Source: Oscillospiraceae bacterium (GTDB taxonomy: Bacteria; Bacillota; Clostridia; Oscillospirales; Oscillospiraceae). Taken from it: a DNA stretch of 64,000 nt. The notes under the pieces are model-generated. The model saw nothing but the letters and a program-made list of their open reading frames with translations. It was not told where the DNA came from and searched no databases. Position numbers and translations under genes: made by a program. How positions within the stretch are numbered: the stretch's first letter is position 1; each line of letters opens with the position of its first letter. Positions 1,202 to 18,528 of this stretch are shown here, in pieces. Location: NCBI GenBank assembly GCA_963628785.1, contig CAVGGQ010000001.1:23969-87968 (forward strand), in the 5' to 3' direction.

Positions 1202-1966
1202 ATGGAGACAAATGCAAAAATCATTGCCGTTTCCGGCAAGGGCGGTGTCGGAAAAACGACACTTGCCGCCGCTATGGTGCGCCACCTGACGGAGTGCAAA
1301 CCGGACGCAAGGATCCTTGCCATCGATGCCGACCCCGCCGTCGGCCTTTCCACCTGCCTCGGCGTGGAAGTGAAGCTCACGCTCGACGAGATCCGCAAGC
1401 AAATTATCGATAATGTAGAAGAGGGCAAAACGAAGGAAGCCATGGAACTCGTGGAAGAATCGCGCTTCCGCATCTTCGATGCTCTTGTGGAAAAGAACGG
1501 CTTTGCGTTCCTCGCCATCGGGCGCCCCGAAGCTGAGGGCTGCTACTGCCGCATCAACGCCTATCTGAAAGACGTCATCACGATGCTCTCCGGCGAGTTT
1601 GATTATGTTGTCATTGACAGTGAAGCCGGCATCGAGCAAATCAACCGCCGCGTGCTCGAGAAAGTCACACATCTTCTGCTTGTATCTGACCAAAGCCGCA
1701 AGGGCATTCAGGTCGCCGGCACCATCAAGCAGGTCGCGGACGAGCTCGTTATGTACAACCACATCGGCGCCGTCATCAACCGCGTGACGAATCCGGATTT
1801 AAATAAGTACATCACCATCCCCGGCGTAGAGATCCTCTCCTATATCGATACGGATGAGTATCATGCCGCCAACGATATTCAGGGCAAGACCGTATATGAT
1901 CTGCCGCCCGAGTCGAGCGTCTACCGCGGAACCAAGGAAATTCTCGAAAAGCTCGACATACTTTAA
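1202..1966 (+). CDS. CooC/AcsF-family P-loop ATPase (MinD/ParA-like metallocentre maturation NTPase)
   Basis: 254 aa. Deviant Walker A IAVSGKGGVGKTT, the AIDADP motif, the C-x-C motif EAEGCYCRINAYL typical of CooC, and DSEAGIEQ. SD AAGAGG lies 8 nt upstream. Confidence 0.8.
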   Translation: METNAKIIAVSGKGGVGKTTLAAAMVRHLTECKPDARILAIDADPAVGLSTCLGVEVKLTLDEIRKQIIDNVEEGKTKEAMELVEESRFRIFDALVEKNGFAFLAIGRPEAEGCYCRINAYLKDVITMLSGEFDYVVIDSEAGIEQINRRVLEKVTHLLLVSDQSRKGIQVAGTIKQVADELVMYNHIGAVINRVTNPDLNKYITIPGVEILSYIDTDEYHAANDIQGKTVYDLPPESSVYRGTKEILEKLDIL

Positions 1967-1998
1967 TTTATTTGCGCAAAACTTTTTCACCATAATAG

Positions 1999-2087
1999 AA
2001 ACCACTAACCATCAAAACCAACCACCAAACCACCAACTACCAACCGCAAACCGCTAAGCAAATCAAGTCAATCCAAACGTCAACAAA
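1999..2087 (+). other. A/C-only, G-depleted intercistronic tract
   Basis: Positions 1999-2045 contain no G and only three T (aaccactaaccatcaaaaccaaccaccaaaccaccaactaccaacc). The A/C-rich character continues to about 2087, just before the GAGGGG SD of the next gene. Confidence 0.9.
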
Positions 2088-2102
2088 AGAGGGGTGTGAC
2101 AT

Positions 2103-3299
2103 TTGAAGGATCTAAAGTATCTGATTTACTTCGAGCAGCTTCTGGATAATGCCGACAACGAACTCGTGAAAAAGGCAGCGGCCGATGGTCAGCTGGCTAT
2201 GGGCTACACATGCTATCATGTACCCGAGCCGATCCTGAACGTCGGAAACTGCTTCTCCGTGCGTCTTCGCGCACCGCACACGGGATCCGTCGACATTGCG
2301 ACATACTACATGTCGAACTACACCTGCGAGTTTGCCCGCGCACTGACCGAGCGCGCCATTGAAGGCGGCTACCAGTTCCTGGACGCCATGATTGGCGTCG
2401 ACGCATGCTCCATGATGAACCGCGCTATGGAGCATTTTGAGATCCTGCAGGTCAACGATAAGCCGAACTTTTTCGTGACCCATGCGGATATTCCTTTCAA
2501 AATCACCGACTATACGCTCGAGTCCTACACGAAGCAGATGCGTCTGCGCGTGCTCGGCAAGATGCATGAGAAGTACGGCGTGGATGTCTCCGACGAGGCA
2601 CTGCGCAAAGCGGTGGAAGAGCACAACGAAGTTTGCCGTATCCTCACCGAGATCGGCGAGCTCCGCAAGATGGAGAACCCGCCCATCACTGGCTACGAGT
2701 ACCACATTCTCAACCTTGTTTCCTACACCTGCCCGAAGGCACTGATCCTTCCGTATCTGCGCGAAACGCTCACGGAGATCAAGAAACGCAAGGTCGACGC
2801 AAAGCCGTGGTACCGCGCCCGCGTGTCCATCGTCGGCAGCGAGATCGACGATCCCATGCTCACCAAGCTCATTGAGAACTGCGGCGCTTTCGTCGTGTCC
2901 GACCGCTACTGCTTCGGCTCCACGCCCGGCCGCGAGGTCATCGAGCTCAACGATACGGACGATGTCCTTACGCAGATCTGCCTGCACTACATGAAGCACT
3001 CCGAGTGCGCACGCTACATTGCCGATGAAAAGGTACAGCAGCGCCGCGACACCGCCGACCGCCTCGCCCACGAATTCGGCGCCGAGGGCATCATCTATGA
3101 GCAGATGAAGTACTGTGACTACTGGGGATTCGAGCGCGCTCTCGTCAGCCACATCATGGCCGAAGAGAAGAACTGGCCCGTGCTCTCCATTGACCGTCTG
3201 TACAATAACGGCAACTCCGGACAGCTGCGCACCCGCGTACAGGCGTTCGTTGAGTCGCTGGAGATCAAGCGCATTCGCAAAGAAGGAGGAAACGGCTGA
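2103..3299 (+). CDS. 2-hydroxyacyl-CoA dehydratase / benzoyl-CoA reductase family, beta (HgdB/BcrC-like) subunit, copy 1
   Basis: 398 aa with a TTG start. Motifs: GYTCYHVPEPIL, GVDACSMM, FVVSDRYCFGS, YCDYW. It is about 50% identical by eye to 6903-8108. Confidence 0.8.
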   Translation: MKDLKYLIYFEQLLDNADNELVKKAAADGQLAMGYTCYHVPEPILNVGNCFSVRLRAPHTGSVDIATYYMSNYTCEFARALTERAIEGGYQFLDAMIGVDACSMMNRAMEHFEILQVNDKPNFFVTHADIPFKITDYTLESYTKQMRLRVLGKMHEKYGVDVSDEALRKAVEEHNEVCRILTEIGELRKMENPPITGYEYHILNLVSYTCPKALILPYLRETLTEIKKRKVDAKPWYRARVSIVGSEIDDPMLTKLIENCGAFVVSDRYCFGSTPGREVIELNDTDDVLTQICLHYMKHSECARYIADEKVQQRRDTADRLAHEFGAEGIIYEQMKYCDYWGFERALVSHIMAEEKNWPVLSIDRLYNNGNSGQLRTRVQAFVESLEIKRIRKEGGNG

Positions 3300-5086
3300 T
3301 GGCAAAAACTCCGAAATATCCCAATCCCAAGTTCTTCCGCGCGAAGGACAATATGGACTGGAAGGCCCAGAGCGAAAACCTCAAAGAGTTCCTCAGCATC
3401 AGCAAGGATCTGATCGCCGAGACCGACTGGAAAGCCTTCGGCAAGCGCCAGCTCAAGGGCTGGGCGGACTTCGGCAAGCGCTTTGCGGAAGAGGCGAAGG
3501 AGGTTGCCGCCATGTCCTGCGAGGAGCGCCGCGAGCTGCTGCTCAAGGGCGAGAAAAAGCTCGGCCGCCTCTATAAGAAGGGCGCCATGGCCACCGTCCG
3601 CCGCGAGTGGCGCGGTATCGGCGACACGGCGTATGACTTCACCGAGTGGCTCCGCATGTGGGGCATGCTCCTCGGCACCTTCTCCAAGGATCTCGTGCCT
3701 GCACTGAACTCCGTTCTTTACTACCGCTGGATGATGTCCTATATGTGCTGTGTCGGATTCATGGACAAGAACACCATGGGTCAGCGCGGCTCGGCTCTCA
3801 AGATGAGCCACCTCATGATCTACGATATTTTCCGCTATGTCGCCGAGAACCTCGTTCTACAGGCGAAGGGCGACGCGAAGAACGGCAATAGCGCCGAGCT
3901 GAACAAGAAGGTCGTTCTCTTCGACGAAATGACGATGGGTCAGCTCATGGCCGGCTTCCCCGACCTCATCGGCATTCCGTACCAGCTTTTTGCCGTGTTC
4001 CTGGTCTCCGAGATCGACCAGCTCACCTGCGTGCCGTATATCGACGCCGTCGAGAGCTTCGGCCTGCCCGCCGACTGCTGCCCGGTGCCGTCCTCCGAGT
4101 GCGGCGCCCTCGTTCTGGACGCTCTGCCGCACATGGGCTCCTGCTTCATCTCAAGCTCCATGCCGTGCGACGGCTCCACGATGGCCTCCTCGTACATGGC
4201 ACGCCGCTTCCCGGATCTCCCGGTGTTCCATCTGTGCTTCCCCGTCCGCTACGAGGACAAAGAGACCGTGCAGTGCGCCGCCGAAGACATCCGCGCCTGC
4301 ATCAAGTTCATTGAAGAGCAGACCGGTGCCAAGTGGAGCTGGGACGCTTACTTCACCGCCATGAAGCGCTTCAACACCGAAACGAGCTACGAGCTAGAAA
4401 AATGGGCCGTCAACCAGACGGCGTACCCGCAGATCATCGGACCGTGCTACGAGCTGTTCCGCAAGTGGAACTACGAGATGGACGGCGGCATTGATCCGCG
4501 TGTGCCGAAGACCTTCAAGAAGGTCAACAGCATCATGCTCAAGGCCTACGAGCGCAAGGAAGAAGCCTGGCCCGGCAAGATGAAATACCGCGCTATCGTG
4601 TGGTCCTGCCCCGCGCACTACTACGCGAACTTCTCCAACTGGCTCGCCAACTGCTGGGGCATCAATGTCCTCGTCGAGATGGAAAGTCTCAACTTCACGA
4701 AGCAGCTCGAGACCGAAGATCCCGAAGAAGCGCTGCGCGATCTCGCCCGTCTGTACGAGCGCATGGTCATGCGCCGTCACACGAACGGCGGCTACCAACA
4801 CGTCGTAGACGAGCTCTGGAAGCAGTGCGAGATCTGGAATGTCGACCTCATCATCATGTATCAGAACGTCGCCTGCAAGAACATGGCCACCGTTCAGGGC
4901 ATTCTCGATGATCAGGCCCGCCAGCAGAACCGCAAGATGATCTGGATTGAGCACGATCTGATGGATCCGCGTACCGTCTCCCGCCGCCAGATGCGCGACA
5001 AGGTGAACGAGTACATGCGCACCGTCATGCACGCCGAACCCGTTGACCCGACCCTCGTCGACTTTGAAGACGAGATCTGCATGTAA
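3299..5086 (+). CDS. 2-hydroxyacyl-CoA dehydratase family, large alpha (HgdA-like) subunit, copy 1, with a long N-terminal extension
   Basis: 595 aa. Its start overlaps the upstream stop (TGATG). Motifs: PADCCPVPSSECGALVLD, SSSMPCDGSTMAS, IVWSCPAHYY. It is a paralogue of 8101-9705. Confidence 0.75.
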   Translation: MAKTPKYPNPKFFRAKDNMDWKAQSENLKEFLSISKDLIAETDWKAFGKRQLKGWADFGKRFAEEAKEVAAMSCEERRELLLKGEKKLGRLYKKGAMATVRREWRGIGDTAYDFTEWLRMWGMLLGTFSKDLVPALNSVLYYRWMMSYMCCVGFMDKNTMGQRGSALKMSHLMIYDIFRYVAENLVLQAKGDAKNGNSAELNKKVVLFDEMTMGQLMAGFPDLIGIPYQLFAVFLVSEIDQLTCVPYIDAVESFGLPADCCPVPSSECGALVLDALPHMGSCFISSSMPCDGSTMASSYMARRFPDLPVFHLCFPVRYEDKETVQCAAEDIRACIKFIEEQTGAKWSWDAYFTAMKRFNTETSYELEKWAVNQTAYPQIIGPCYELFRKWNYEMDGGIDPRVPKTFKKVNSIMLKAYERKEEAWPGKMKYRAIVWSCPAHYYANFSNWLANCWGINVLVEMESLNFTKQLETEDPEEALRDLARLYERMVMRRHTNGGYQHVVDELWKQCEIWNVDLIIMYQNVACKNMATVQGILDDQARQQNRKMIWIEHDLMDPRTVSRRQMRDKVNEYMRTVMHAEPVDPTLVDFEDEICM

Positions 5087-5169
5087 TTAAATAAATGCAT
5101 GGAGCCGCGAAGCATAAGATGCGGCATCGATGAACTAACTTTTGTAACAAATTTTGGAGGGTATATATC

Positions 5170-5976
5170 ATGGCAAAGAAGTATTTCGCTGGGTGCGACG
5201 TAGGCTCCACCTATACCAAGGCCGTCATTCTTGACGAACAGGGCAACATCGTAGCCAACACCACCATCAAGAGCAAGATCAACTCCGAAGAATCTGCGAA
5301 GATCGCAATGCAGCAGGTCATCGACCAGGTCTCCGACCTGAGCTCTTCCAAAGATCTCGAGTACCTCATCGGCACCGGCTACGGCCGCAACAAGGTTCCC
5401 TTTGCTGACGAAAACATCTCTGAGATCAGCTGCCACGCCATGGGCGTGCACGTGACCGACCCCTCCGTAAAGGCCATCATCGATATCGGCGGCCAGGACG
5501 TTAAGGGCATCAGCATCGACACCGACGGCACCGTGAAGAACTTCGCGATGAACGATAAGTGCGCCGCCGGTACCGGCCGCTTCTACGAGGCCATGGCCCG
5601 TTCCTTCGAGATGGATCTTACCCAGTTCTCCAACCTCTCCCTGACCGCAAAGAACGTTATCCCCATCACCGCCCAGTGCACCGTGTTTGCCGAGTCCGAG
5701 GTCATCACGCTCGTCGGCGAGGGCAAGCCCATGGACGAGATCGCGGCCGGCATCCAGATGGCCGTTGCCAAGCGCTGCTTCGTTATGGCGAAGAAAGCCG
5801 GCGCCACCGACAGCATCACGCTGACCGGCGGCTGCGCGAAGAACGCCGGCCTCAAGCAGGCCATTGAGCACGTCCTCAAGCTGAAGGTCATCGACCTCAA
5901 GACCGACCCGCAGCTCATGGGTGCTCTCGGCGCGGCAGAGTATGCCCGTCAGAAGGGTCTTTCGAAAGGAGTGTAA
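5170..5976 (+). CDS. ATP-dependent activase of the dehydratase family (HgdC/BcrAD_BadFG ASKHA ATPase)
   Basis: 268 aa. Motifs: CDVGSTYTKAVI, DIGGQDVK, NDKCAAGTGRF and AQCTVFAESEV (the two cluster cysteines), and LTGGCAKN. SD GGAGGG is present. Confidence 0.9.
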   Translation: MAKKYFAGCDVGSTYTKAVILDEQGNIVANTTIKSKINSEESAKIAMQQVIDQVSDLSSSKDLEYLIGTGYGRNKVPFADENISEISCHAMGVHVTDPSVKAIIDIGGQDVKGISIDTDGTVKNFAMNDKCAAGTGRFYEAMARSFEMDLTQFSNLSLTAKNVIPITAQCTVFAESEVITLVGEGKPMDEIAAGIQMAVAKRCFVMAKKAGATDSITLTGGCAKNAGLKQAIEHVLKLKVIDLKTDPQLMGALGAAEYARQKGLSKGV

Positions 5977-5982
5977 TTCCCA

Positions 5983-6150
5983 ATGAAGAAATTCTGGAAA
6001 GTTTTCGGCAAAATCGCTGGCATCCTGACGGCGGTCATCGGAATCCTGTTCGTTGTGTATTTCTGGAATCTTGACCAGAAGCTGCTCTCCTGGGCTTACA
6101 CTGCGGTGAATAAGATCTTCGATCGCAAGAAGACGGACATTAAGTTCTGA
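5983..6150 (+). CDS. 55-aa single-TM peptide, below the ORF-track cutoff; paralogue of 9724-9915
   Basis: My own translation: MKKFWKVFGKIAGILTAVIGILFVVYFWNLDQKLLSWAYTAVNKIFDRKKTDIKF. An AAAGGAG SD lies upstream, and the stop overlaps the next start (TGATG). It shares the KVFGKIA-IL..LF-V-YF-LD-KLL motif with the 63-aa ORF. Confidence 0.65.
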   Translation: MKKFWKVFGKIAGILTAVIGILFVVYFWNLDQKLLSWAYTAVNKIFDRKKTDIKF

Positions 6151-6878
6151 TGGAGCTTTTCAACAGCTGCATTCACGAATCGGAGGAGCTGCTCCGCGGC
6201 TCCTCTCCGGAAAAATGGGCGTACGATTTGTCGGCGTGCTGGAAGGAAACGGACAGAAACGAACTCGTTATGCTGCGCGAAGCCGCCTTTGAACTCGGCG
6301 GCAGCGCGAAAAGCGCTGTATCCTACAGCTGCTTCACGACCGATGAGCGCCTTGTCGGCAGCGACGAGGTGTGGCTGTACGGCCCGGACCTTTCGGAGAT
6401 CAAAGGTGACTGCGCATTCGCGCGCATTGTTCTCTTTTCCATACAGGATGTCGGGGAAGAGGATGAGGCATACCGTGCGCTGCAGGACATTGAATTCGTA
6501 AAATACCATGTGTTCCCCAAAGGATACATGATCCGCGCCCTCTCCGAGGACAACCGCGAGCAGGTGCGCGTAAGCAAAGATGCCGTCCGAGCCGGGATCT
6601 CCTTCAAGAATGTCGGCTTTGACTACATCCGCAAATTCCGCGAAAAGGAAAATGTTCGCTCCGTCCGCGTGATGTTTGTCACCGAACCGAAAGCGGATTA
6701 TGCGTCACTTCGGACGCTGGCGCGCAAGGTGAACGACATTACCCGTTCCTTGAGCACCATTTTAGACGGCATCCCCACCGACTGCGACTCGTGCGGTCTG
6801 CGCGAGATCTGCGATGAGGTGGAAGGTATGCGCGAGCTTCACTTCCAAAAGGCGGGCAAGAACACCGCCGAAAAATAA
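6150..6878 (+). CDS. Stand-alone protein resembling the middle domain of acetyl-CoA synthase (AcsB/CdhC), ending just after a C-x2-C-x5-C motif
   Basis: 242 aa. The stretch EQVRVSKDAVRAGISFKNVGFDYIRKFREK..VRVMFVTEP matches the remembered ACS/CdhC stretch W-x-RVSKDAVAKGFRFKNYGE..VQVTIFTD. The C-terminal TDCDSCGLREIC sits where ACS has the first A-cluster cysteines. Confidence 0.6.
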   Translation: MELFNSCIHESEELLRGSSPEKWAYDLSACWKETDRNELVMLREAAFELGGSAKSAVSYSCFTTDERLVGSDEVWLYGPDLSEIKGDCAFARIVLFSIQDVGEEDEAYRALQDIEFVKYHVFPKGYMIRALSEDNREQVRVSKDAVRAGISFKNVGFDYIRKFREKENVRSVRVMFVTEPKADYASLRTLARKVNDITRSLSTILDGIPTDCDSCGLREICDEVEGMRELHFQKAGKNTAEK

Positions 6879-6902
6879 CAAAGTATCTACGGAGGAAGCC
6901 CC

Positions 6903-8108
6903 ATGCGTGATTTGAAAAATGTCATCTTCTATGATGACCTGCTGCAGGAGGCCTATAACTCTCTTGTACGTCAGGCAAAAGAAGAAGGCAAATATGCCCT
7001 CGGCTATACTTGCTACTTTATGCCGGAAGTCCTTCTCGATCTGCCCGGCTGCTTCAGCGTACGCCTTCGTGCGCCGCGCTGCACCTCGCCCGATATGGCG
7101 ACCTACTACATGTCCGGCCGCGTGTGCCACTATGCGCGCAGCCTTTTGGAGCGCGCTCTCGAAGGCGGCTACAACTTCATCGACGCCCAGCTCGGCACCG
7201 AGACCTGCACCGGCACCTGCCGCTTCCAGGAGCACCTTGGCGAGTTGCCCGACCTCATTCAGAATGAGAAATTCTTCGTCTCTTTCACCGATGTGCCCTT
7301 CAAGAAGAATCAGAACAGCGTAGAACACTTCACCACTACGCTGCAGGTGCATGTGCTCGACGAACTGCACAACCACTTCGGCATTGATGTGTCCGACGAA
7401 GCTCTCTTCAAGGCCATCGAGGAGCACAACGAGGTCTGCGACATCATCACCCAGATCGGTGATTTCCGCAAGCTCGACAACCCGACCATCACCGGCACGG
7501 AGTTCCACACCATCAACCTCGTGTCGATGGTCTGCCCGAAGTACCTTATTCTCCCGTACCTTCGCGAGACGCTCAAAGACCTCAAGACGCGCGAGCCCGA
7601 CAAGAAGCCCGATTACCGCGTCAAAGTCGTCCTCGCCGGATCAGAAAACGACGACCCCGGCTTCACGAAGCTTATCGAGAGCTGCGGCGCTCTCGTCGTG
7701 GCCGACCGTCACTGCTACGGTTCTCTGCCCGGACGCGAGAAGATCGAAGTGCGCGAAGGCGAAAAGCCCCTCACTGCTATCGCCCACCACTATCTCGAAA
7801 CGAGCGTTTGCCCGCGCTTCATGGAGCAGTCCTCCATGCGCAGCCGCAAGCAGTACATCGTCGACATCGCCAAGGAATACAAGGCCGACGGCATCATCGT
7901 GGAATCCAACAAGTTCTGCGAGTACTGGAGCTACGAGCGCGTGGCGGATACGCTCATCCTGCCGCGTGACTTCGGCATCCCCGTGTGCTCCATTGAGAAG
8001 GAGTACATCAACTCCGCCTCCGGTCAGCTCCGCACCCGCTTCCAGGCGTTTGTGGAGAGTCTGGAGATCAAGAAGATCCAGGAGAAGGAGGGCGTGAAGA
8101 ATGGATAA
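6903..8108 (+). CDS. 2-hydroxyacyl-CoA dehydratase family beta (HgdB-like) subunit, copy 2
   Basis: 401 aa. Motifs: GYTCYFMPEVLL, GTETCTGTC, LVVADRHCYGS, FCEYW. The C-terminal QLRTRFQAFVESLEIKKI is almost identical to copy 1. Confidence 0.8.
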   Translation: MRDLKNVIFYDDLLQEAYNSLVRQAKEEGKYALGYTCYFMPEVLLDLPGCFSVRLRAPRCTSPDMATYYMSGRVCHYARSLLERALEGGYNFIDAQLGTETCTGTCRFQEHLGELPDLIQNEKFFVSFTDVPFKKNQNSVEHFTTTLQVHVLDELHNHFGIDVSDEALFKAIEEHNEVCDIITQIGDFRKLDNPTITGTEFHTINLVSMVCPKYLILPYLRETLKDLKTREPDKKPDYRVKVVLAGSENDDPGFTKLIESCGALVVADRHCYGSLPGREKIEVREGEKPLTAIAHHYLETSVCPRFMEQSSMRSRKQYIVDIAKEYKADGIIVESNKFCEYWSYERVADTLILPRDFGIPVCSIEKEYINSASGQLRTRFQAFVESLEIKKIQEKEGVKNG

Positions 8109-9705
8109 GGCCAAAATGAAGAAAGCCCTGAAAGATTTCTGGTACGGCAAGCCGCACGGTGAACGCCGCCTCGGCGACATCATGCTCGACAAGACCGGCC
8201 TCTATAAGCACCGCGAGTGGCGCGGCGTGAAGGACACCTTCTACTACTTCAACAACATTTGGCTCTACAACTACGGCCAGATGATCGCCGACATTCTCAA
8301 GAGCGAAGACCCCATCGCCTTCTTCAAGGGCGTTTGGCGTTACCGCTGGGTCGGCCAGACCTATCTCCCCGTGCTGCACTGGTTTGACCGCGGCTTGCAG
8401 GGCCTCCGCGGCGACGCGCTTCGCGCCTCTGCGTGGCACTACCGTGCGATGGTCTGCGTGACCATTCAGCAGTTCCAGCGCATGTTCGCTGCCGACGCAA
8501 AGCTCAACGGCGGCAAGCACAATGACTACTATGAGCACACCATGGCGCACAAAGAGACCGTCTGGGGCGGCATCTTCTATCCGTGGTCCGACAAGTTCAA
8601 GAACGTTCCTCTGGAAATGATCCCGTACTTTGTCACCTGCCATGTGAATAGCCACACCGTGCTCAACTACATCGATGCCGTGCAGTCCATCGGCCTCCCG
8701 GGCGACCCCTGCCCGATGTGCCAGGCCGAGGCCGGCATCTTCGTCCTCGACGATGTGCCCGATTATTCGCCTCTCTTCGTAACATCCAACGAAGCGTGCG
8801 ACGCGTCCGTCGCGAGCACCGCTCTGCAGGACTGGTTCTTCGATAAGCCGCTCTACGCCATGCCGCAGCCGATGCAGTTTGACGATCCCATCGTCAAGAA
8901 GTACTGCGCCAAGGAGATCGAGGGCGCCTGGAAGTTCATCGAAGAGCAGACCGGCGTTCCGTTCAACTGGGATCTTCTCGTCAAGCGTGTCGAGGCTCAG
9001 AACGAGCTTCAGCGCTTCGAGTGGGAGAAGTGGGATGTGGCCGCCAACACCGATTACTATCCCATCAACGGCGTTGCGCAGGCTCTCTACCGCATCTATC
9101 AGTCTCAGTACGGCGACAACTACATCTGGCACGAGGTCGACGCGCGTGTCCGCAAGATCATGGAGCGCTGCGTGCAGAACAAGAACATCACGTTCCCTAA
9201 TACCCGCCACCGCGTCATTGCATGGTCGTGCGCACCGCTTTATTACTCCAACTGGTGCACATGGGCGTACAACTGCTGGGGTCTCAATGTTGTTATCAAC
9301 ATGGACTCCCTCATGTTCGACATGACCATCCGTACCGACAACTACGAAGACTGCCTCGAGGATATCGCCCAGTACCACATGTGGGCTCCGATGCGCCGTA
9401 TGGCCGTCGGCGGCATGCAGCACTTCTTCGAGCTGTGGAAGTACATGGAACGTTTCAACTGCGACATGGTCGCCATGTATGATCAGCTCCAGTGCAAGGG
9501 CGCGCAGGGCATGCACGGCGTCTTTGAGGACGAGTTCCGCAAGCGCAACATCCATGCCTTCTGGATTCCGCACGCGCTGCCCGACTGCCGCACCGTTTCC
9601 CGCGCGGAGATCCGCCGCATCATCAATGATTACATGACCACCGTCATGCACGAAGAACCGCTCGATCCGTCGCTCCTCGATTTTGACGACTCCATGAGCT
9701 GGTAA
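8101..9705 (+). CDS. 2-hydroxyacyl-CoA dehydratase family alpha (HgdA-like) subunit, copy 2
   Basis: 534 aa, with an 8-nt overlap onto the upstream gene. Motifs: PGDPCPMCQAEAGIFVLD, TSNEACDASVAST, IAWSCAPLYY, and a REWRGVKDTFYYF N-terminal motif shared with copy 1. Confidence 0.75.
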   Translation: MDKAKMKKALKDFWYGKPHGERRLGDIMLDKTGLYKHREWRGVKDTFYYFNNIWLYNYGQMIADILKSEDPIAFFKGVWRYRWVGQTYLPVLHWFDRGLQGLRGDALRASAWHYRAMVCVTIQQFQRMFAADAKLNGGKHNDYYEHTMAHKETVWGGIFYPWSDKFKNVPLEMIPYFVTCHVNSHTVLNYIDAVQSIGLPGDPCPMCQAEAGIFVLDDVPDYSPLFVTSNEACDASVASTALQDWFFDKPLYAMPQPMQFDDPIVKKYCAKEIEGAWKFIEEQTGVPFNWDLLVKRVEAQNELQRFEWEKWDVAANTDYYPINGVAQALYRIYQSQYGDNYIWHEVDARVRKIMERCVQNKNITFPNTRHRVIAWSCAPLYYSNWCTWAYNCWGLNVVINMDSLMFDMTIRTDNYEDCLEDIAQYHMWAPMRRMAVGGMQHFFELWKYMERFNCDMVAMYDQLQCKGAQGMHGVFEDEFRKRNIHAFWIPHALPDCRTVSRAEIRRIINDYMTTVMHEEPLDPSLLDFDDSMSW

Positions 9706-9723
9706 TGAGGGAGGAAGAAAGAA

Positions 9724-9915
9724 ATGCGTAAAGTTCTGAAAGTATTCGGCAAGATCGCCGCTATTCTGGCCGGCATCTATGCTCTGCTGTTCGCAGTGTT
9801 CTACTTCGACCTCGACGGCAAGCTGCTCTACTATGTCGTAGAGCCGTTCCTCGTAAAGCACTACGACAATATGCCCCGCGAAGACGTCACCAAGCGAGCC
9901 TACAAAATCAAGTAA
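9724..9915 (+). CDS. 63-aa single-TM peptide, paralogue of 5983-6150
   Basis: MRKVLKVFGKIAAILAGIYALLFAVFYFDLDGKLLYY.. A GAGGGAGG SD lies upstream. It sits directly after the alpha-2 gene. Confidence 0.65.
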   Translation: MRKVLKVFGKIAAILAGIYALLFAVFYFDLDGKLLYYVVEPFLVKHYDNMPREDVTKRAYKIK

Positions 9916-9921
9916 ATTTAA

Positions 9922-10080
9922 GGCAACACCGCACAATGTCGTCTGCGGCGCTTTGCGGATCTTTTTCGCCGACTCTGCGTCATCAAGCCTTGCCATACAC
10001 AAAGTATGGCTGCGGCTATCTTCCTTGATTCGACGAATAATCTTTCGCAAATCGCACTTGCCGAATTATGCGGTGTTGCC
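9922..10080 (+). repeat. MITE-like intergenic repeat, copy A (long form, about 159 bp) with 16-bp imperfect terminal inverted repeats
   Basis: The left end is GGCAACACCGCACAATGTCGTCTGCGGCGCTTT and the right end is AAATCGCACTTGCCGAATTATGCGGTGTTGCC. It aligns end to end with 54837-54996 and shares the centre CCTTGC-ATACACAAAGTAT-GCTGCG. Confidence 0.8.
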
Positions 10081-10096
10081 TAAAGCCAATCAATAC

Positions 10097-10136
10097 CAAA
10101 AGCGGCGCAGTCCCAACCGACTGCGCCGCTTGTTTC
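10097..10136. terminator. Bidirectional rho-independent terminator
   Basis: Stem GCGGCGCAGT (10102-10111) pairs with ACTGCGCCGC (10120-10129). It is flanked by AAAA on the left and TTGTTT on the right, between convergent operons. Confidence 0.7.
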
Positions 10137-10159: not shown

Positions 10160-11893
10160 TCAACCCGTGATTATTTTCCAAATGCCTCGGAAGAAGCGCC
10201 CGTTGGCGATCTCCACCATGCCGGGCATCAGGCCGCCTTTGATGCCGCCGGAGATCTGCATGCTGCGGATGGGCGCTCCGGCGGAGGAGTTCATCATCAT
10301 CCGGAAGTCCGGGTCATTGTAATCGGCCTTGCCGTCAAACCCATTGACCACGGTCTTTTCTATGGCCTTGTACATCATGTTCATCAAAAGGCTTTGGTCT
10401 TTCATTTCCATCACGGTATTTTCCGTAGTGAAGGAACCTTTTTTTGCCTCGGACGGCGTGTAGGTGCATCCCAAAGCCGCTTCCCAATCCTTTCGGTTCG
10501 GCTTCCCGCTGCAGTGCTCATACCAGCTGCCTGCCTGCCATGCCGCAACGCTCAAACAGTCGCCGGACTTTTCGATATCCGCCGTCAGTCCGCCGACGGA
10601 AACGGTATAGTGTCCCGCAGGCACCTTCCATCCGTCCTGCCATACGGCAAAGCTGCGCTCCGATAGTTCGAAGGTGACGGTGCGTTTCTCGTCGGGCTCC
10701 AGGAATACCTTTCGGAAACCTTTGAGTTCGCGAAGCGGGCGGTGCACTCCGTCTTGCGGCGCGGCGATATACAGCTGCACGACTTCCGCACCGGCACATT
10801 TGCCGGTGTTTTTCACCGTTGCTTTCACGGAATTTCCCGATACCTTCAAACCGGAATAGGCAAATTTCGTGTAGCTGAGTCCGAACCCGAACGCCCAGCG
10901 CACCGGAACGCCGGCTTTTTCGTAGTAACGATAGCCGACATACATGCCTTCCTCGTAGAGCGCATCGGTCGTCTTGCCGTAGATCTCCGAGGTCGGTATA
11001 TCCGCATAGCTCATCGGCCAGCTCTCGGCGAGCCTGCCGCAGGGGTATGCGCGGCCGTACAGGAGATCCGCAATGGCTTCGCCGCCCGCCTCGCCGGGCA
11101 GACCCATATAAAGAATTCCCTTGACGCTGTCCGACCATGGGCATTCCACAGCGCTTCCGCATAGCAGCACGACCACGGTGTTCGGATTGGCTTTCGCCGC
11201 CGCTTCAATCATACGGATATGCCCCTCGGGCATTTTTATATCGTTCCGGTCAAATCCTTCGGATTCGCATCGAGAGGGGAGACCCGCAAAAACGATCACC
11301 GTATTGGCATTCGATGCGGCGCTTTTTACATAAGCGCACATGACAGTGGAAGGCTTGCCCTCTTTTACGGCAATTTCAAAAGCGGTGAGGTAGAGCTCCC
11401 GCAGTGTTCGTTCATCGAGAATGCTGTCGGAGGTGAGCCGATCCAGCTCCTGCGAGTTGTCGGCAAAGTGTTTTAGGCTTGTGCCGATGCCCTGCGATTC
11501 CGCACCGCGGATAAATCCGGCGGCCAGCTTTCCCGCAAGATAGGGATCTTCACTGAAATACTCAAAAATCCGTCCACACAGCGGACTGCGTTTTATGTTG
11601 GCACCCGGCCCCAAAACGAGCCCGACGCCCTGCTTGCGCGCTTCCTCTCCGATGGCACGACCAATGGCTTCCGTGAGCTCGGGGTTCCAGCTGCCTGCTG
11701 TCGTGACCTCGGCCGGGAAACAGGTCGCCGGACGGGAATTGTTCACGCCCAGCATATCGGTCGTGCCCTCCTGCTTGCGCAGACCGTGAGGGCCGTCGCA
11801 CATGAACATCGAAGGAATGCCGTACTTTTCAAACTTTTTTGTTTGCCAAAAGCTCGCGCCGGAGCAAAGAGCGACCTTGTCCTCCAACGACAT
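10160..11893 (-). CDS. GH3 beta-glucosidase homologue carrying an in-frame internal deletion (nucleophile region missing); probably inactive
   Basis: MSLEDKVALCSG..CDGPHGLRKQ..FEYFSEDPYLAG..KHFADNSQE..VMCAY then directly VKSAASNANTVIVFAGLPSRCESEGFDR. The intact paralogue at 55023-57419 has about 190 extra residues there, including VITDWGG. The start is uncertain; the 709-aa track ORF has a non-homologous N-terminal extension that overlaps the PAP2 gene. Confidence 0.7.
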   Translation of the reverse strand: MSLEDKVALCSGASFWQTKKFEKYGIPSMFMCDGPHGLRKQEGTTDMLGVNNSRPATCFPAEVTTAGSWNPELTEAIGRAIGEEARKQGVGLVLGPGANIKRSPLCGRIFEYFSEDPYLAGKLAAGFIRGAESQGIGTSLKHFADNSQELDRLTSDSILDERTLRELYLTAFEIAVKEGKPSTVMCAYVKSAASNANTVIVFAGLPSRCESEGFDRNDIKMPEGHIRMIEAAAKANPNTVVVLLCGSAVECPWSDSVKGILYMGLPGEAGGEAIADLLYGRAYPCGRLAESWPMSYADIPTSEIYGKTTDALYEEGMYVGYRYYEKAGVPVRWAFGFGLSYTKFAYSGLKVSGNSVKATVKNTGKCAGAEVVQLYIAAPQDGVHRPLRELKGFRKVFLEPDEKRTVTFELSERSFAVWQDGWKVPAGHYTVSVGGLTADIEKSGDCLSVAAWQAGSWYEHCSGKPNRKDWEAALGCTYTPSEAKKGSFTTENTVMEMKDQSLLMNMMYKAIEKTVVNGFDGKADYNDPDFRMMMNSSAGAPIRSMQISGGIKGGLMPGMVEIANGRFFRGIWKIITG

Positions 11894-11928
11894 AGAGTCT
11901 ATGATTTGGTTTACATAATAATCGTCCG

Positions 11929-12786
11929 TTATTTGTTCTCCGTTTTGTTTTTCAATAGGACGGCGTCCGTGAGCGCTCTTGCCAGGAGAAATGAGAGCAG
12001 CATAAAGAAGGCACCCGCGGTCACATCCGATGCAAAGTGCGCAGCCAGGACGATGCGTCCGACGCCGATGACCACCGCCCATAAAAGCCCCGCGCCGAGG
12101 AAATATGCGCGCTTTCCCCTGAACTTTTCCAAAACATCGCAGAGCAGCACATAGAGGCAGGCAGCGGCCGCTTTGGATGCATGCCCGGAGGGGAAGGAAT
12201 CTCCGCCGAGTGCCGAAGAGCGAGGTTCGTACCAGACGCAAAAATCGGAATACGGTGCCGTGAGATCGCGCATGCGCGGCCGATCCCAAAAAGATTTGAG
12301 CACATTCACAAAGAGCTCCTGCAGCATTACGGTGACGACTACGATGAGTGCCGCGCGAATGACCTCGTCCCGATGCATGGAGAGGAGCTTTTTCGCGGCA
12401 AACAGAGCGCCGATGCCCATAGCCGTTCCGAGCGTTGCTCCGAGAATGAGCGCGAGCTTCGTGCTCGTATACTTCACGGAGAAGAAAAAGATGAAGAATC
12501 CGTACTCAAATGTGCCGATGAAGCAGATGACCGCCCCCAAAATGCGCCCAAAGCTCTTCTTCTGCCAAAGCGCCGTAAAGAGCACGGCAAAGGACATCAT
12601 CACGAGGAGATCCAGAGGGATCTCGCTGGCCCACTCCGCAAACTTTCCGAAGCCGCTTTCCGTATTCACGTGCGCCAGGGAGCTGTCAAGGTCAAAAAAC
12701 GCGAACAGGGCCATCAAAACCGCGAAAACGCCGATCAGTGCCAACAGACATTTCTTTGTGGAGTAAGACTCTTTGATTTCGTTCAT
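11929..12786 (-). CDS. PAP2-family membrane phosphatase
   Basis: 285 aa and polytopic. PAP2 motifs: KSFWDRPRM, FPSGHAS, GRIVLAAHFASD. Its start overlaps the upstream stop (ATGA). Confidence 0.8.
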   Translation of the reverse strand: MNEIKESYSTKKCLLALIGVFAVLMALFAFFDLDSSLAHVNTESGFGKFAEWASEIPLDLLVMMSFAVLFTALWQKKSFGRILGAVICFIGTFEYGFFIFFFSVKYTSTKLALILGATLGTAMGIGALFAAKKLLSMHRDEVIRAALIVVVTVMLQELFVNVLKSFWDRPRMRDLTAPYSDFCVWYEPRSSALGGDSFPSGHASKAAAACLYVLLCDVLEKFRGKRAYFLGAGLLWAVVIGVGRIVLAAHFASDVTAGAFFMLLSFLLARALTDAVLLKNKTENK

Positions 12787-13580
12787 TTACTTTCCCTCAT
12801 TTCATAGGTCTTGCATCCCGCACTCTGCGTAACCACCTGTCCGTCGGGCAGACGAACCTCGGCTGTGCAGTTGACGGGTACGGTAACGGAAAACGCACAT
12901 CCGGTCTCCGTTCTTGTCCAGCCACTCTCCACGCGTCCGTACAGACTGTTGTATGCGGCCTTTGCGTGCATAAAGCGTCCGCCGGGGCGCGGGGCAATGA
13001 TAAAGCGGTTTTCACCGCCGATGCGGATGCCGCACATCGTATCAAAAAGCCAGCGGCACACGGCACCCTTGGAATAGTGATCGAGCGAAGCCACGCCGCT
13101 TCCCTTGGCACGGTCACCTTCCCACGACTCCCAAATGGTCGTTGCGCCGCTCTTCGGCATGAAGAGCCATCGGGGCATTTCCTCATTTTCGAGAAGCCAG
13201 TAGGCGGCTTCCAAATCAATGTCCGCAAGCACATCGAGGATCAGCGGGGTGGAGAGGAAACCGGTGCCAAGCCGCCAGCCGTAGTTTTCAAGCGCCGTAA
13301 GAAGCCGCTTTTTTGCAAATTCGGTCTGCTCTTCATTGAGCAGGCGGAAAGCGAGTGGGCGCACCAGCTGCGCCTGACGGTCGGTGTCGAGCGTGAATTC
13401 TTTCGTTTTCATCATGGCCTGATAGGCTCTGCGGCAGCCGTCGCTGTATTCTTTATACTTTGCAATATCCGCGCGGTGGCCGAGCTCATCGGCAATCTCA
13501 CACATCAGATCCATGATAGGCCTAGAGCAAACCACGGGCTTTGCCCGCGGTGATTGGATCAACCACTGGAGCAACGCCGC
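12783..13580 (-). pseudogene. C-terminal remnant of a GH78 alpha-L-rhamnosidase
   Basis: Only about the last 260 residues are homologous: ..GTGFLSTPLILDVLADIDLEAAYWLLENEEMPRWLFMPKSGATTIWESWEG..SLDHYSKGAVCRWLF..IAPRPGG. The N-terminal part of the 383-aa track ORF is out-of-frame read-through of the transporter remnant. Confidence 0.7.
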
Positions 13581-13900
13581 TAACTTAGTGACATTGACGG
13601 ACGCGCCTTGCCCTCCGGCGTATGGGTACGGTCGATGATGTAGCCCATGATCACATTGGTGATAGCGTCGATGATTTTTGAAACTATGGGGAAGATGACC
13701 AGAAAGGCGCCGTCTGCGATACGCGTAAGATCGAGAACGTCGGTGTAGTAGACATTGAGATAGGTACCAAGCGCGGCATTGAGAAGCAGTGCTCCCGCAG
13801 GTCCGAGCAGATAGCCGAGCCAACGCTCCTTCGGTGTGACATTTTCGGAAGTGATCTTGCTCCGGAATATCTTCCGGCTCATAAGAGTTTCGCCGTTCAT
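13580..13900 (-). pseudogene. N-terminal remnant (about 100 aa) of a GPH-family glycoside:cation symporter
   Basis: [84 protein letters not shown], then a premature stop. A GGAGGAA SD lies upstream. A full GPH carrier is about 450-500 aa. Confidence 0.7.
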
Positions 13901-13993
13901 GTTTCGTTCCTCCGTTTTTGGGCATGTATTCCATTCGTATAATACCATGCCGATTTTCCGTTGTCAGTATAGCACAAGAGAAAAAGCCTTCAC

Positions 13994-14022
13994 TTGCATT
14001 TTCGTTACCGATACGATATAAT
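13994..14022 (+). promoter_or_regulatory. Putative sigma-A promoter of the interrupted AraC gene
   Basis: TTGCAT (13994-13999), 17 nt, TATAAT (14017-14022). Confidence 0.5.
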
Positions 14023-14055
14023 TGTATTCAAAATACGATGTGTGGGAGACAGTGT

Positions 14056-15255
14056 ATGGGAACGATCGATTTAGCGTATCTCTGCACGACCATCGGCAAC
14101 CTCTCCGGCGTGCCGGTACGCATTTTCGAAGGGGAGCGGCAGACATTTTTTTATTCGCAGTGTACCCTGCCGCGCGACCCGATAAACATATGCCGCGATA
14201 AGATTTTTGCCGTTTCCTCGCATATCGGGTATGTAACGACGAGCCGCTTCCATTACTACGGCATAATAAACTCCGGCAATACAAAAGTCGTCATAGGACC
14301 GACCCGCCAGATCGCCGAGACCGACCAGGAGCTGCGCGAGCTTGCTTTTCGCATCGATGTGCCGCCCGACGAAATACCGCAATTCATTTCCGGCATGAAA
14401 GGCATCATGCGAATGCCCATCGAGAGTATCCTGCAGGTCTTGTGCACCATGAACCATGTGCTCAACGGCGAGAAGCTTTCCCTCAAAGACATCGCCATCC
14501 ACGAGACCGAGCAGGAAAAGCTCATCGCTTTGCAGACGAGAGAACAGGTGGAGCAGATGCTTTCAGCCCTGAAGGATGAATACGCAGGTTTACATAATAC
14601 ATACGATATCGAGCAAACCATCCTGCGCATCGTGCGAAAAGGGGATACAGCTGCGCTTCGTGAATGGGAAGCGCATGCACCGGCCCTTCGCGGCGGCGTG
14701 CTGGCGGAAGAAACGCTTCGCCAGAGAAAGAATACCTTCATCGTTATGGCTACGCTCGTCTGCCGCGCCGCCATCCGCGGCGGAATGGATGTGGACGATG
14801 CCTTCTCTTACAGCGATTCTTATATCCGTGAGTGCGAGCGCCTCTCCTTGCCGAATGACATCACGAATCTCTAATACCGCATGGTGCTCGATTATACCGA
14901 GCGAGTGGAACGCCTGTAGCCCGGCAAGCAGCCCTCGAAGCTGACGATCGATGTGACGAATTATATTCGGCACCACCTCTCCGAGGCCATCACGGCCGAG
15001 CGGATCGCAGATGAGCGTTATCTGAGCCGCCCGTACCTTTCCCGCAAATTTAAGGAGGAGACCGGCGAGACGCTGACGGATTTCATTCTGAAAGAAAAAA
15101 CGGAGGAAGCCAAGCGCCTCCTCCGCTATTCGGAAAAATCCGTGACCGCCATCAGCTCGTATCTCGGCTTTTCCTCGCCGAGCCACTTCTCCCGTGTATT
15201 TAAAAAATACGCCGCGCGCACTCCGCAGGAGTACCGCGAAAAATACGAAGTATAG
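14056..15255 (+). pseudogene. AraC-family regulator interrupted by two in-frame stop codons
   Basis: The track ORFs 13918-14874 and 14953-15255 are in the same frame. Stops are TAA at 14872-14874 and TAG at 14917-14919 (..ITNL*YRMVLDYTERVERL*PGKQ..). The C-terminal HTH (SRPYLSRKFKEETG..SSYLGFSSPSHFSRVFKKY) lies after the stops. A GGGAGA SD precedes the ATG at 14056. Confidence 0.75.
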
Positions 15256-15263
15256 AATAAGAA

Positions 15264-15309
15264 ACGCACAGGGCCGGACAGCTTGCCGACCCTGTGCGTA
15301 TAATTTTTT
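15264..15309. terminator. Bidirectional terminator between convergent genes
   Basis: A 13-bp stem pairs CGCACAGGGCCGG (15265-15277) with CCGACCCTGTGCG (15286-15298), with one mismatch. ATAATTTTTTT follows. Confidence 0.7.
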
Positions 15310-16623
15310 TCAGAAACCGAAAAAGTTTTTGGCGTTGATGCCGCAGATGTTTTGCACCATCGATCCGAGCACTTTTTCGTCCGCGGGATATTGACCGCCT
15401 TCCGCGAGCTCCGCGAGCTTCTCGCAGAGAATGCGGCGGTAATACTCATGCCGCGGGAAAGAGGAAAACGAGCGCGAGTCGGTGAGCATACCCACGGACT
15501 TCGCGAGCATTCCGGTCTCCATCAGCTCATCGATCTGCGCGCGCATGCCGCGGATGGTGTCGTTGAACCACCACGCCGCACCGTACTGCACCTTCGGAGC
15601 AAAGTTGACGGCCATGGTAGAGAGCACCGTGTTTTCGGCGGGATTGAGGTTATAGAGCACCGTGTTCGGAAGAGCGCCGTCCGCTTCGAGATCGCCGAGG
15701 AATGCGCCGAGCTCAAAAACATCGGTCGTGCGCCCGACACTGTCGCCGCCGGCATCCGGACCGACGGAAGAGAACAGGCGGGGATTCTGATTGCGGATGG
15801 GCCCGAGATGCAGCTGCATCGCGATGCCGTGCGCATAATACTCATGCGCGAGAAAACGGAGAAGATCCGCCTTCGGCGTGCCGCGCACATAAGAGAAATG
15901 ATCGAACCCGTGATCGGACACCTTGCAGCCGAGCGAAACGAAATGCTCCAGAGCGCGGTACAGCGCCTCTTCGAGCGACGCCAAATCGGTAATTTCCACG
16001 CCGACCGCGTCGCCGAGTTTCTTTGCATTTGCGGCAAACTCCGGCGCATCGGGGTCCAAATACTTGTCGGGACGGAACGAGGGGAGCACGCGGAAGGGAA
16101 TGTTCGCATCATCGCGGATCTTCTCATGCCACTCGAGCGTATCGACGGGATCGTCTGTGGTGCACAGCATCCGTACATTCGCTTTTTCGAGCAGCGAAAC
16201 GGCATCGTATCCCTTGAGCTTTTCCTCGGTCTCAATCCAGATCGCGGCAGCCGTTTCCGGCGTCAACACTTCGTATATGCCGAAATAGCGCTGCAGCTCG
16301 AGATGCGTCCAGTGGTAGAGCGGACATCCCGCGAGCTGCGGCACGACCTCGGCCCACTTGAGGAACTTCTCATATTCCGGCGCATCGCCGGTGATATAGC
16401 GCTCGTCCACTCCGCACGCGCGCATGGCGCGCCACTTGTAATGATCGGCGGCGAGCCAGAGCTGCGTGAGATTTTCGTACTTTTTCCGCTCTGCGATCTC
16501 CTTCGGAGGCAGATGGTTGTGGTAGTCGTAAATCGGCTCGTTTTCCGCATAGGTGTGAAAGAGCGTTTTTGCAAACTCGCTTTCCAGCAGAAAATCGCGA
16601 TCCATAAACGCTTTCATGTTCAC
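15310..16623 (-). CDS. uxaC: Glucuronate isomerase
   Basis: 437 aa. MKAFMDRDFLL..IYDYHNHLPPKEI..DHYKWRAMRACGV..PLYHWTHLELQRYFG..AAWWFNDT..MLTDSRSF..RHEYYRRILC. Confidence 0.9.
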   Translation of the reverse strand: MNMKAFMDRDFLLESEFAKTLFHTYAENEPIYDYHNHLPPKEIAERKKYENLTQLWLAADHYKWRAMRACGVDERYITGDAPEYEKFLKWAEVVPQLAGCPLYHWTHLELQRYFGIYEVLTPETAAAIWIETEEKLKGYDAVSLLEKANVRMLCTTDDPVDTLEWHEKIRDDANIPFRVLPSFRPDKYLDPDAPEFAANAKKLGDAVGVEITDLASLEEALYRALEHFVSLGCKVSDHGFDHFSYVRGTPKADLLRFLAHEYYAHGIAMQLHLGPIRNQNPRLFSSVGPDAGGDSVGRTTDVFELGAFLGDLEADGALPNTVLYNLNPAENTVLSTMAVNFAPKVQYGAAWWFNDTIRGMRAQIDELMETGMLAKSVGMLTDSRSFSSFPRHEYYRRILCEKLAELAEGGQYPADEKVLGSMVQNICGINAKNFFGF

Positions 16624-17471: not shown

Positions 17472-17629
17472 AATAATACCTCCGGATCTTATTTTTGATG
17501 TTATTGATGCTATTATATTAGCACACACCGATTTGCAATAAAATTGCGAATTACTTCAAACAATATTGCGCTTCTGCGCATTTTATGATACTCTTAGCCC
17601 AAAGAAACCCAAAGGAGATGCATTCGGGA

Positions 17630-18439: not shown

Positions 18440-18442
18440 GAG

Positions 18443-18485
18443 AAAACAGCAGTGTCTGCACAGATGGCAAACGCTGCTGTTTTTC
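18443..18485 (+). terminator. Rho-independent terminator after the AraC gene
   Basis: Stem AACAGCAG (18445-18452) pairs with CTGCTGTT (18474-18481) and runs into TTTTT. Confidence 0.55.
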
Positions 18486-18492
18486 GCATTAT

Positions 18493-18528
18493 GGCAAAGC
18501 ACCGCACAACATTGTCTGCGGTGCTGCC
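18493..18528. repeat. Solo hairpin module related to the left arm of the MITE-like repeat
   Basis: GGCAAAGCACCGCACAACATTGTCTGCGGTGCTGCC compares with the repeat arm GGCAACACCGCACAATGTCGTCTGCGGC. It has a perfect 8-bp stem GCACCGCA/TGCGGTGC and abuts the stop codon at 18529. Confidence 0.55.

Follow-up and report, generated by a model that had tools for sequence, protein, structure and literature searches.

The window analysed here, a stretch of 64,000 nucleotides from contig CAVGGQ010000001.1 of an Oscillospiraceae bacterium (assembly GCA_963628785.1), carries a gene (1202–1966, + strand) whose 254-aa product is a genuine ATPase of the CooC family. To our knowledge, CooC-type ATPases have been described in one role only, the maturation of the two nickel centres in the Wood–Ljungdahl pathway. 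The gene studied here is a member of a whole sister clade tied to reductases of the benzoyl-CoA reductase (BCR) and double-cubane type, and most of the carriers tested had no carbon monoxide dehydrogenase (CODH). This linkage suggests an undescribed metal-insertion step in the family of BCR-type reductases. We propose that the members of this third CooC clade are specialised for ATP-driven Fe-S reductases of the BzdNO/DCCP type and act as metallochaperones, most probably for nickel; we consider this reading about 60% probable. In full-text literature searches, no account of HGD-D/BCR operons with a CooC-type gene was found.

The open reading frame (ORF) begins with ATG, which is preceded by the Shine-Dalgarno sequence AAGAGG 8–9 nt upstream, and its product has the N-terminus METNAKIIAVSGKGGVGKT. 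The translation contains the deviant Walker A motif GKGGVGKT with the signature Lys13 (residues 12–19; 1235–1258, +), the switch I region D42-A-D44-P (1325–1336, +), the putative metal-binding CxC motif C114-Y-C116 (1541–1549, +) in the context EAEGCYCRINAYL, and the Walker B/switch II segment D139-S-E-A-G-I-E-Q146 (1616–1639, +). The protein has only four cysteines, at positions 32, 52, 114, and 116. The best match among PDB sequences was CooC1 of Carboxydothermus hydrogenoformans (3kje, E 3.3e-15), followed by a runner-up at 3e-7. In this alignment, the CYC of the query falls on the CYC at residues 112–114 of CooC1, that is, on the nickel-binding Cys112 and Cys114 (numbering checked). The window protein also resembles CooC1 (3kje/3kjg/3kjh/3kji) in its length of 254 aa, its SIMIBI fold, and its D-x-D and D-x-E-A-G-x-E motifs. 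Thus, the first-pass annotation, which recognised a deviant Walker A and a C-x-C at the position used by CooC/AcsF-type maturases and called the protein CooC-type, is upheld by the closest solved structure and by the phylogeny given below.

Searches against Pfam and NCBIfam returned generic SIMIBI matches (AAA_31, CbiA, ArsA, and MinD), all far below the family cut-offs, and no CooC-specific model; the NCBIfam nifH score was 18.8 bits against a cut-off of 394. The sequence has no C-terminal CxxC of the Mrp/Nbp35/ApbC type, and its switch II, DSEAGIEQ, holds no second cluster cysteine of the NifH type. An AlphaFold2 (AF2) model of high confidence (pLDDT 91.9, pTM 0.91) showed the SIMIBI fold, and a Foldseek comparison of this model with the PDB gave TM-scores of about 0.7 for FleN, NifH, BchL, MinD, and CooC1 alike, CooC1 being ranked 44th. 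The predicted fold therefore establishes membership of the SIMIBI superfamily only, and because the Foldseek scores do not discriminate, the family assignment is based on sequence, motifs, and the tree.

The homologue search covered 5.8 billion proteins and yielded 7958 relatives at E ≤ 1e-5 among 8000 candidates scored. The main phylogenetic tree was built with IQ-TREE under the LG+C20+F+G4 model from 72 rows, namely proteins of context-labelled loci, representatives of 50%-identity clusters from a library of 1.84 billion proteins, and CooC1, with Mrp and Soj from the window's own genome as the outgroup (support is given as ultrafast bootstrap/SH-aLRT). The CooC family, with the window protein inside, was separated from Mrp and Soj at 96/92. 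CooC proper, comprising CooC1 and all the CooS-adjacent proteins, received support of 100/100, and an AcsF-like group received 92/79; the window protein was excluded from both and fell into a third clade of 41 rows (90/84). A larger FastTree phylogeny of 150 rows recovered these three groups as well. On the tree, then, the third clade is a paralogue of both the CooS-linked CooC and the acs-linked AcsF. Of the proposed CooC/AcsF assignment, membership of the family stood and membership of the CooC or AcsF clade proper did not.

The CxC motif was 100% conserved across all three clades of the family, and G-C-[YF]-C was present in all 120 homologues listed, which were 55–93% identical to the query. 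In 23 diverse relatives (33–68% identity), the invariant residues were G12, K13, G14, G15, G17, K18, D42, D44, G113, C114, C116, N119, D139, E141, A142, G143, E145, Q146, and R149; conservation of the motif in orthologues therefore holds down to 33% identity. The Walker A residues G12, K13, G14, G15, G17, and K18, together with D42, D44, D139, E141, A142, G143, and E145, were kept family-wide in the three clades. Residue 146 distinguished them: it was Gln in 100% of the 41 third-clade rows and His in 100% of the CooC rows and 89% of the AcsF-like rows. The switch II histidine of EAGxEH, found in both characterised clades, is accordingly absent from the window ATPase, which has Gln146 instead. 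Val151, which replaces the Thr of the other clades, was a second signature position. The surroundings of the motif differed as well, reading GCYC[KSR][IV]N in the third clade and GC[VA]CPEH in the CooC proteins of CODH operons.

Gene context sorted exactly with clade in the fetched loci. Relatives 56–93% identical to the window protein showed the constant order ATPase, HGD-D beta, HGD-D alpha, activase, small peptide, and CdhC-like protein; those with 34–39% identity were located in acs clusters, and those with 28–32% identity adjoined CooS. A scan of one genome per GTDB species with a peptide pattern that includes the clade-signature Gln, [VLI][IV]D[GAC]EAGxEQ, detected at least 557 relatives, and the locus counts given here refer, at the species level, to the best 80 of them. 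Nearly all of these 80 came from metagenome-assembled genomes (MAGs) of gut, rumen, and faecal Clostridia, with labels including Oscillospiraceae, Candidatus Scatomorpha, Candidatus Limivicinus, Acutalibacteraceae, Anaerovoracaceae, Eubacterium, and Tissierellaceae. Co-occurrence with HGD-D genes was strong, as both beta and alpha were found in 52 of the 57 loci having at least 3.2 kb of downstream sequence. The CdhC-like gene was present in 44 of 47 evaluable loci (absent from L036, L044, and L055); no other partner of the ATPase was as constant. Wherever the context of a third-clade row was known (23 rows), the ATPase gene adjoined HGD-D/BcrAD-type genes and/or the CdhC-like gene, and in none of these rows did it adjoin CODH or acetyl-CoA synthase (ACS) genes. 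In the third-clade loci examined (L001–L011, L024–L111), no CooS or AcsB match was found near the ATPase gene.

The association extended to distant sub-clades. At about 40% identity, contigs from Chloroflexota/Dehalococcoidia-type metagenomes carried the CdhC-like gene followed by the ATPase gene; in L106, these two genes close a cluster that also encodes two HGD-D pairs and an activase, and in L104 and L105, the pair stood alone. A basal sub-clade at about 37% identity included Desulfitobacterium dichloroeliminans LMG P-21439 and Sporomusa silvacetica DSM 10669. Here, the ATPase gene immediately followed the HGD-D pair in clusters with two BcrAD-type genes, like those of true class I BCRs, and with beta-oxidation-type genes; the CdhC-like gene was absent. 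An apparent ATPase/CdhC-like fusion (P0326, 389 aa; L108, 1612–3217) was discarded as a probable frameshift or gene-call artefact: its 3.3-kb metagenome contig has the CdhC-like gene broken into a 143-aa piece and a part in frame with the ATPase.

Six of the 80 loci contained the ATPase/CdhC-like pair only, surrounded by unrelated genes such as GlmS, Sir2, and thiamine and purine genes. The five pair-only genomes that were searched all had HGD-D pairs at other sites (2–16 HGD-D matches each), so the pair can act in trans. In one of them (G463, the genome of L102), 16 HGD-D matches forming about eight alpha/beta pairs accompanied a stand-alone ATPase/CdhC-like pair, and one helper pair may serve many paralogous reductases there. 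As a separate observation, another stand-alone pair (L008, on a contig shared with L098) lay divergent from a gene at 11003–12628 for a 541-aa [FeFe]-hydrogenase-like protein with Fe_hyd_lg_C and 4Fe-4S domains.

The ATPase is independent of CODH and ACS. The genome of the window (2.08 Mb, 96% complete) has three CooC-family genes, one per clade. A classical acs cluster on another contig of this genome (C11) contains acsCD, acsE, and CooS (12330–14225), followed by an adjoining CooC gene (14228–15019) whose product, with the motif GCVCPEH, is 29% identical to the window ATPase. Next come AcsB (15022–17169), MoxR and VWA genes, CooT (19895–20071), and an AcsF-like gene (20170–20940; motif GCYCYVN) flanked by CooT and RACo, with 34% identity to the window ATPase. 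The CODH and ACS of this genome thus already have factors of their own, since the acs cluster carries both CooC and AcsF-like genes. Moreover, a search with the genome's own CooS protein gave no match in 13 carriers of the third-clade gene (G001, G015, G017, G019, G023, G024, G069, G416, and G458–G462), seven of which are at least 93% complete, although it matched in both controls, G000 and G290. On C11, the interval from AcsB to the AcsF-like gene (17378–20071) holds the MoxR-like AAA and VWA genes, a CoxD/CoxE-like pair, and CooT, an accessory set that is unusual for an ACS.

The presumed client is encoded directly downstream of the ATPase gene. The operon contains HGD-D beta 1 (2103–3299, +; BzdN/DCCP-like; Pfam HGD-D 300 bits, NCBIfam double_cubane 143 bits), HGD-D alpha 1 (3299–5086, +; BzdO/MbdO-like, 595 aa, with an N-terminal extension), a single activase of the BcrAD/HgdC type (5170–5976, +; Pfam BcrAD_BadFG 190 bits, TIGR00241 214 bits), HGD-D beta 2 (6903–8108, +; 297 bits), and HGD-D alpha 2 (8101–9705, +; 106 bits); the four HGD-D genes are the only ones in this genome. 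The best solved matches of beta 1 were BzdN (8s02_B, E 3e-21) and then DCCP (7yyl, 6eno). Beta 1 keeps six cysteines aligned with Cys36/73/100/263/293/327 of BzdN, which bind the [8Fe-9S] double cubane (PMC11971306). Among 18 alpha subunits, C261 and C290 were the only invariant cysteines; C526, which precedes the invariant K527, was replaced by His in the two sequences of the Chloroflexota-type locus L106. By position, C261, C290, and C526 match the three ligands of BzdO. The adjacent cysteines and the extra Cys of alpha 1 (DCCPVPSSEC) were considered as a special site and rejected, as they were not conserved in orthologues. The sequences therefore place the partner enzyme with the ATP-dependent reductases of the BzdNO/DCCP kind; that it is a 2-hydroxyacyl-CoA dehydratase (HAD) is not evident. 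Of the dehydratase-like operon first suggested for this locus, the HGD-D link was retained and the dehydratase identity was not. As for the suggested non-standard, possibly heterometallic centre in one of the catalytic modules, neither the alpha nor the beta sequence hinted at an additional heterometal site.

Compared with BzdNOPQ/MbdONPQ and DCCP (8s02, 9g87, 6eno, 7yyl), beta 1 aligns end to end with all six double-cubane cysteines, alpha has its three cysteines at the BzdO ligand positions, and a BcrAD-type ATPase is likewise present. The window cassette differs from class I BCRs in having one activase gene, not two, and its type of alpha subunit differs from those of the Bzd, Mbd, and DCCP systems by an N-terminal extension with an REWRG..DT motif. 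We know of no CooC-type or CdhC-like partner in the characterised Bzd, Mbd, or DCCP systems. In alpha 1, the extension spans some 90 residues; most homologues have a shorter one. In Clostridia-type alphas, it carries RREWRG..DT..D and YRWM motifs (window 3299–3600 and 8101–8300), and it is absent from the Chloroflexota and Desulfitobacterium/Sporomusa alphas.

The CdhC-like protein (6150–6878, +; 242 aa) matches the middle domain of ACS (Pfam CdhC 24.4 bits; residues 330–469 of ACS in the PDB) and ends in the invariant D211-C212-x2-C215-x5-C221-D222. In an alignment with AcsB from this genome, C212, C215, and C221 fall on the first three cysteines of the A-cluster. The protein is much shorter than AcsB (242 versus 715 aa), comprises the ACS middle domain and three cysteines only, and lacks the Cys-Gly-Cys that holds the distal nickel in ACS. 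AcsF, a CooC paralogue of the acs cluster, is reported to insert nickel into the A-cluster of ACS. The window ATPase shares with AcsF the GCYCxxN context, the possibility of a CooT gene directly upstream, and a partner with A-cluster-type cysteines, which is AcsB there and the CdhC-like fragment here; it differs in its distinct clade (34–39% identity), the Gln in place of the switch II His, and the BCR-like operon setting.

Genes of nickel metabolism were found beside some of the cassettes. CooT and a His-rich DUF8180 protein were located near the cassette in 7 of the 63 loci with sufficient upstream sequence, as well as in L001–L003. In four CODH-less carriers, the sole CooT gene of the genome lay upstream of the ATPase gene at a distance of no more than about 5 kb (0.6 kb in G024). 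In Sporomusa silvacetica DSM 10669 (L111), HypA and a CobW/HypB-type gene (2439–3518) were located about 5 kb upstream of the ATPase gene of the BCR-like, CdhC-less cluster, with a second HypA downstream (17994–18344). The usual nickel enzymes were also sought in the carriers. No full-length large subunit of [NiFe]-hydrogenase was found in the 13 genomes searched; matches in G023, G458, and G459, lying in ORFs of about 365–400 aa, were not counted because they covered only positions 1–69 of the 508-position model. LarA was not found in G001, G023, G069, G416, G461, and G462, nor urease in the five carriers searched. That several complete carriers lack CODH as well as these enzymes might suit a dedicated client. 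The DUF8180 protein itself (81 aa; MHEGHHSCDHEHSG...) is paired with CooT, and the pair is divergent from the ATPase gene (L001, 7089–7530; also L027, L028, L030, L032, and L086).

The closest published idea comes from Acetobacterium wieringae, in which nickel chaperones have a genomic link to a non-canonical Fe-S reductase: HypA/HypB are encoded beside the putative isoprene reductase IsrA, and the usual client of these chaperones is absent from the organism; the authors proposed nickel insertion into a Cys6 Fe-S cluster site, which is biochemically unproven (PMC10134865). The two cases are unlike in the chaperone, a G3E GTPase with HypA there and a SIMIBI ATPase of the CooC type here, and in the client, an FAD/NADH oxidoreductase there and an HGD-D protein here.

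Taken together, a metallochaperone role, probably for nickel, is the mechanism best supported by these comparisons. As in CooC1 and AcsF, two ATP-bound monomers would form a dimer with a single metal ion bound between them by the four thiolates of the two CxC motifs, and the metal would be released to a cysteine-rich acceptor upon ATP hydrolysis. The ion would most probably be nickel, passed on by CooT or HypA/HypB where these are encoded beside the cassette. The most probable acceptor in the window operon would be the CdhC-like protein, whose C-x2-C-x5-C corresponds to the start of the A-cluster site of ACS; it is named because of the analogy with AcsF and AcsB, which the action of the ATPase on the CdhC-like protein would mirror. 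This protein is at least as likely to receive the metal as the catalytic modules. Once loaded, it might be a subunit or a cofactor donor of the reductase. Relatives without the CdhC-like gene would have to use the reductase itself as the acceptor; the CdhC-less Desulfitobacterium/Sporomusa type means that the CdhC-like protein cannot be the sole one. A more specific proposal, that the third clade is the dedicated nickel insertase of an unrecognised nickel-dependent branch of the BCR/HAD/DCCP enzymes, is tentative, and we would give it somewhat less than an even chance. In that case, the nickel would sit on the ACS-fragment protein, in an A-cluster-like Ni-[4Fe-4S], or at the open iron position of the catalytic cluster.

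Several observations weigh against the assignment to nickel. The metal has been assigned from homology and neighbouring genes only. The clade-specific Gln for His in switch II could mean that these proteins handle another metal or work in another way. The alpha and beta sequences have the standard cluster cysteines only, with no extra conserved ligand set. BzdNO has been produced in Escherichia coli with both clusters and no helper (PMC11971306). CooT stands beside the cassette in only about a tenth of the loci, and near the window operon no CooT, HypA, or nickel transporter was found, the single CooT of the genome being that of the acs cluster. A transporter of the CbiM/NikM type, the only kind searched for, was detected in one of five carriers tested. 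In addition, the linkage is documented for 23 of the 41 third-clade rows, the other 18 being intermediate representatives.

The main rival explanation is that the ATPase is a factor for the assembly or repair of Fe-S clusters and not a nickel insertase. Like NifH or Nbp35/ApbC, which are also SIMIBI proteins, its dimer would carry a [4Fe-4S] cluster or help to fuse such clusters, and possible targets would be the [8Fe-9S] double cubane of beta or the cluster of the CdhC-like protein. This explanation would agree with the retention by beta 1 of the six double-cubane cysteines of BzdN (PMC11971306), with a fold as near to NifH and BchL as to CooC1, with the lack of an additional conserved ligand set in alpha and beta, with the several carriers without a CbiM/NikM-type transporter, and with the His-to-Gln change. 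However, DCCP has reportedly been made in E. coli with its [8Fe-9S] cluster and no dedicated factor. The [8Fe-9S] cluster of BzdNO likewise formed in E. coli without one (PMC11971306), and the neighbouring CooT and HypA/HypB-type genes point to nickel. The motif, too, is the CxC of the Ni/Zn-binding CooC1 and not the CxxC of Nbp35/ApbC or the separated cysteines of NifH. The likeness to NifH, BchL, and Nbp35/ApbC thus lies in the fold, with TM-scores equal to that of CooC1, and, in the AF2 model, in a cysteine site predicted to precede the helix that follows the strand after switch I; the sequence similarity to these proteins is far below that to CooC1. We consider a role in Fe-S assembly unlikely.

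A further alternative is that the ATPase delivers no metal and acts as an ATP-driven electron-transfer or gating partner, comparable to the Fe protein of nitrogenase, or as a structural assembly ATPase that docks on the reductase. The nitrogenase Fe protein and BchL share its SIMIBI fold, the chemistry of the cassette is low-potential and ATP-coupled, and in the AF2 model the CxC lies just before a helix starting at residue 115. Cys97 of NifH is presumably in a similar setting. Nevertheless, the cassette already has a BcrAD-type activase for ATP-coupled electron transfer, switch II lacks the NifH-like second cysteine, and the stand-alone ATPase/CdhC-like pairs, located far from reductase genes, fit a trans-acting maturation factor better than they would fit a stoichiometric subunit. 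We regard this alternative as improbable. A positioning or regulatory ATPase of the MinD/ParA type with no metal role is more improbable still: it is suggested by the generic MinD, ParA, and CbiA matches in Pfam and NCBIfam, but the tree separates the protein from the Mrp and Soj of its genome, the CxC is invariant throughout the clade, and the E-value of CooC1 is eight orders better than that of any MinD/ParA structure. Finally, the notion of a spare CooC/AcsF copy for the complete CODH/ACS cluster of the genome, placed beside HGD-D genes by chance, is hardly credible in view of the separate CooC and AcsF-like genes of that cluster in other clades, the 13 carriers without CooS, and the HGD-D/CdhC-like synteny over 80 species and three distant sub-clades.

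If nickel insertion by the third clade is true, an unrecognised nickel-dependent branch would exist in the BCR/HAD superfamily, common in gut and rumen Clostridia and also present in Chloroflexota, Desulfitobacterium, and Sporomusa. Under the insertase proposal, hundreds of anaerobes from the gut, rumen, and subsurface would possess a nickel enzyme of a new kind. If handling of Fe-S clusters is true instead, the ATPase would be the first dedicated maturation factor for the BCR-type enzyme family. The CdhC-less version of the system occurs in two named, presumably culturable strains, LMG P-21439 and DSM 10669.

The remaining features of the window locus concern the borders and junctions of the operon. 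Upstream, on the opposite strand, lies the N-terminal part of a gene for an OYE/BaiCD-like Fe-S flavoenzyme (1–951, −; Pfam Oxidored_FMN, NCBIfam BaiCD-like), which is syntenic in L001, L009–L011, and L024–L026; 8 of 63 orthologous loci have such a divergent gene immediately before that of the ATPase. It is separated from the ATPase gene by an AT-rich divergent intergenic region of 250 nt (952–1201), the presumed promoter region, in which no + strand match to the sigma-70 consensus reached the scan threshold. The scan from the ATPase gene onward (1966–10100) detected no terminator-like site on the + strand; the first strong hairpin of this kind, bidirectional and with a 13-bp stem, is located after the operon (10100–10131, +). 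The ATPase gene is therefore the promoter-proximal cistron at this locus, in agreement with the first-pass annotation. The ATPase-first order is typical of the Oscillospiraceae-type cassette and is not universal: 4 of 63 loci have an HGD-D alpha gene immediately before that of the ATPase in the same orientation, and the distant Chloroflexota and Desulfitobacterium/Sporomusa types have the ATPase gene either midway through the cluster or as its last member.

Two small hydrophobic peptides are also encoded in the operon. Counterparts of the first (5983–6150, +; 55 aa) were matched by tblastn at many orthologous loci, where they lie between the activase gene and that of the CdhC-like protein; the second (9724–9915, +), an ORF paralogous to the first, had weak matches after alpha 2 in L010, L011, and L024–L026. 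The junctions between genes are tight, with the exception of a 136-nt spacer between the ATPase gene and beta 1 (1967–2102). This spacer holds a tract of A and C only, at about 1999–2045. The corresponding gap in orthologous loci is about 12–80 nt (L001, 12 nt; L009, 61 nt; L010, 69 nt; L006, 76 nt), and since these gaps are much shorter, the A/C tract appears to be genus-specific.

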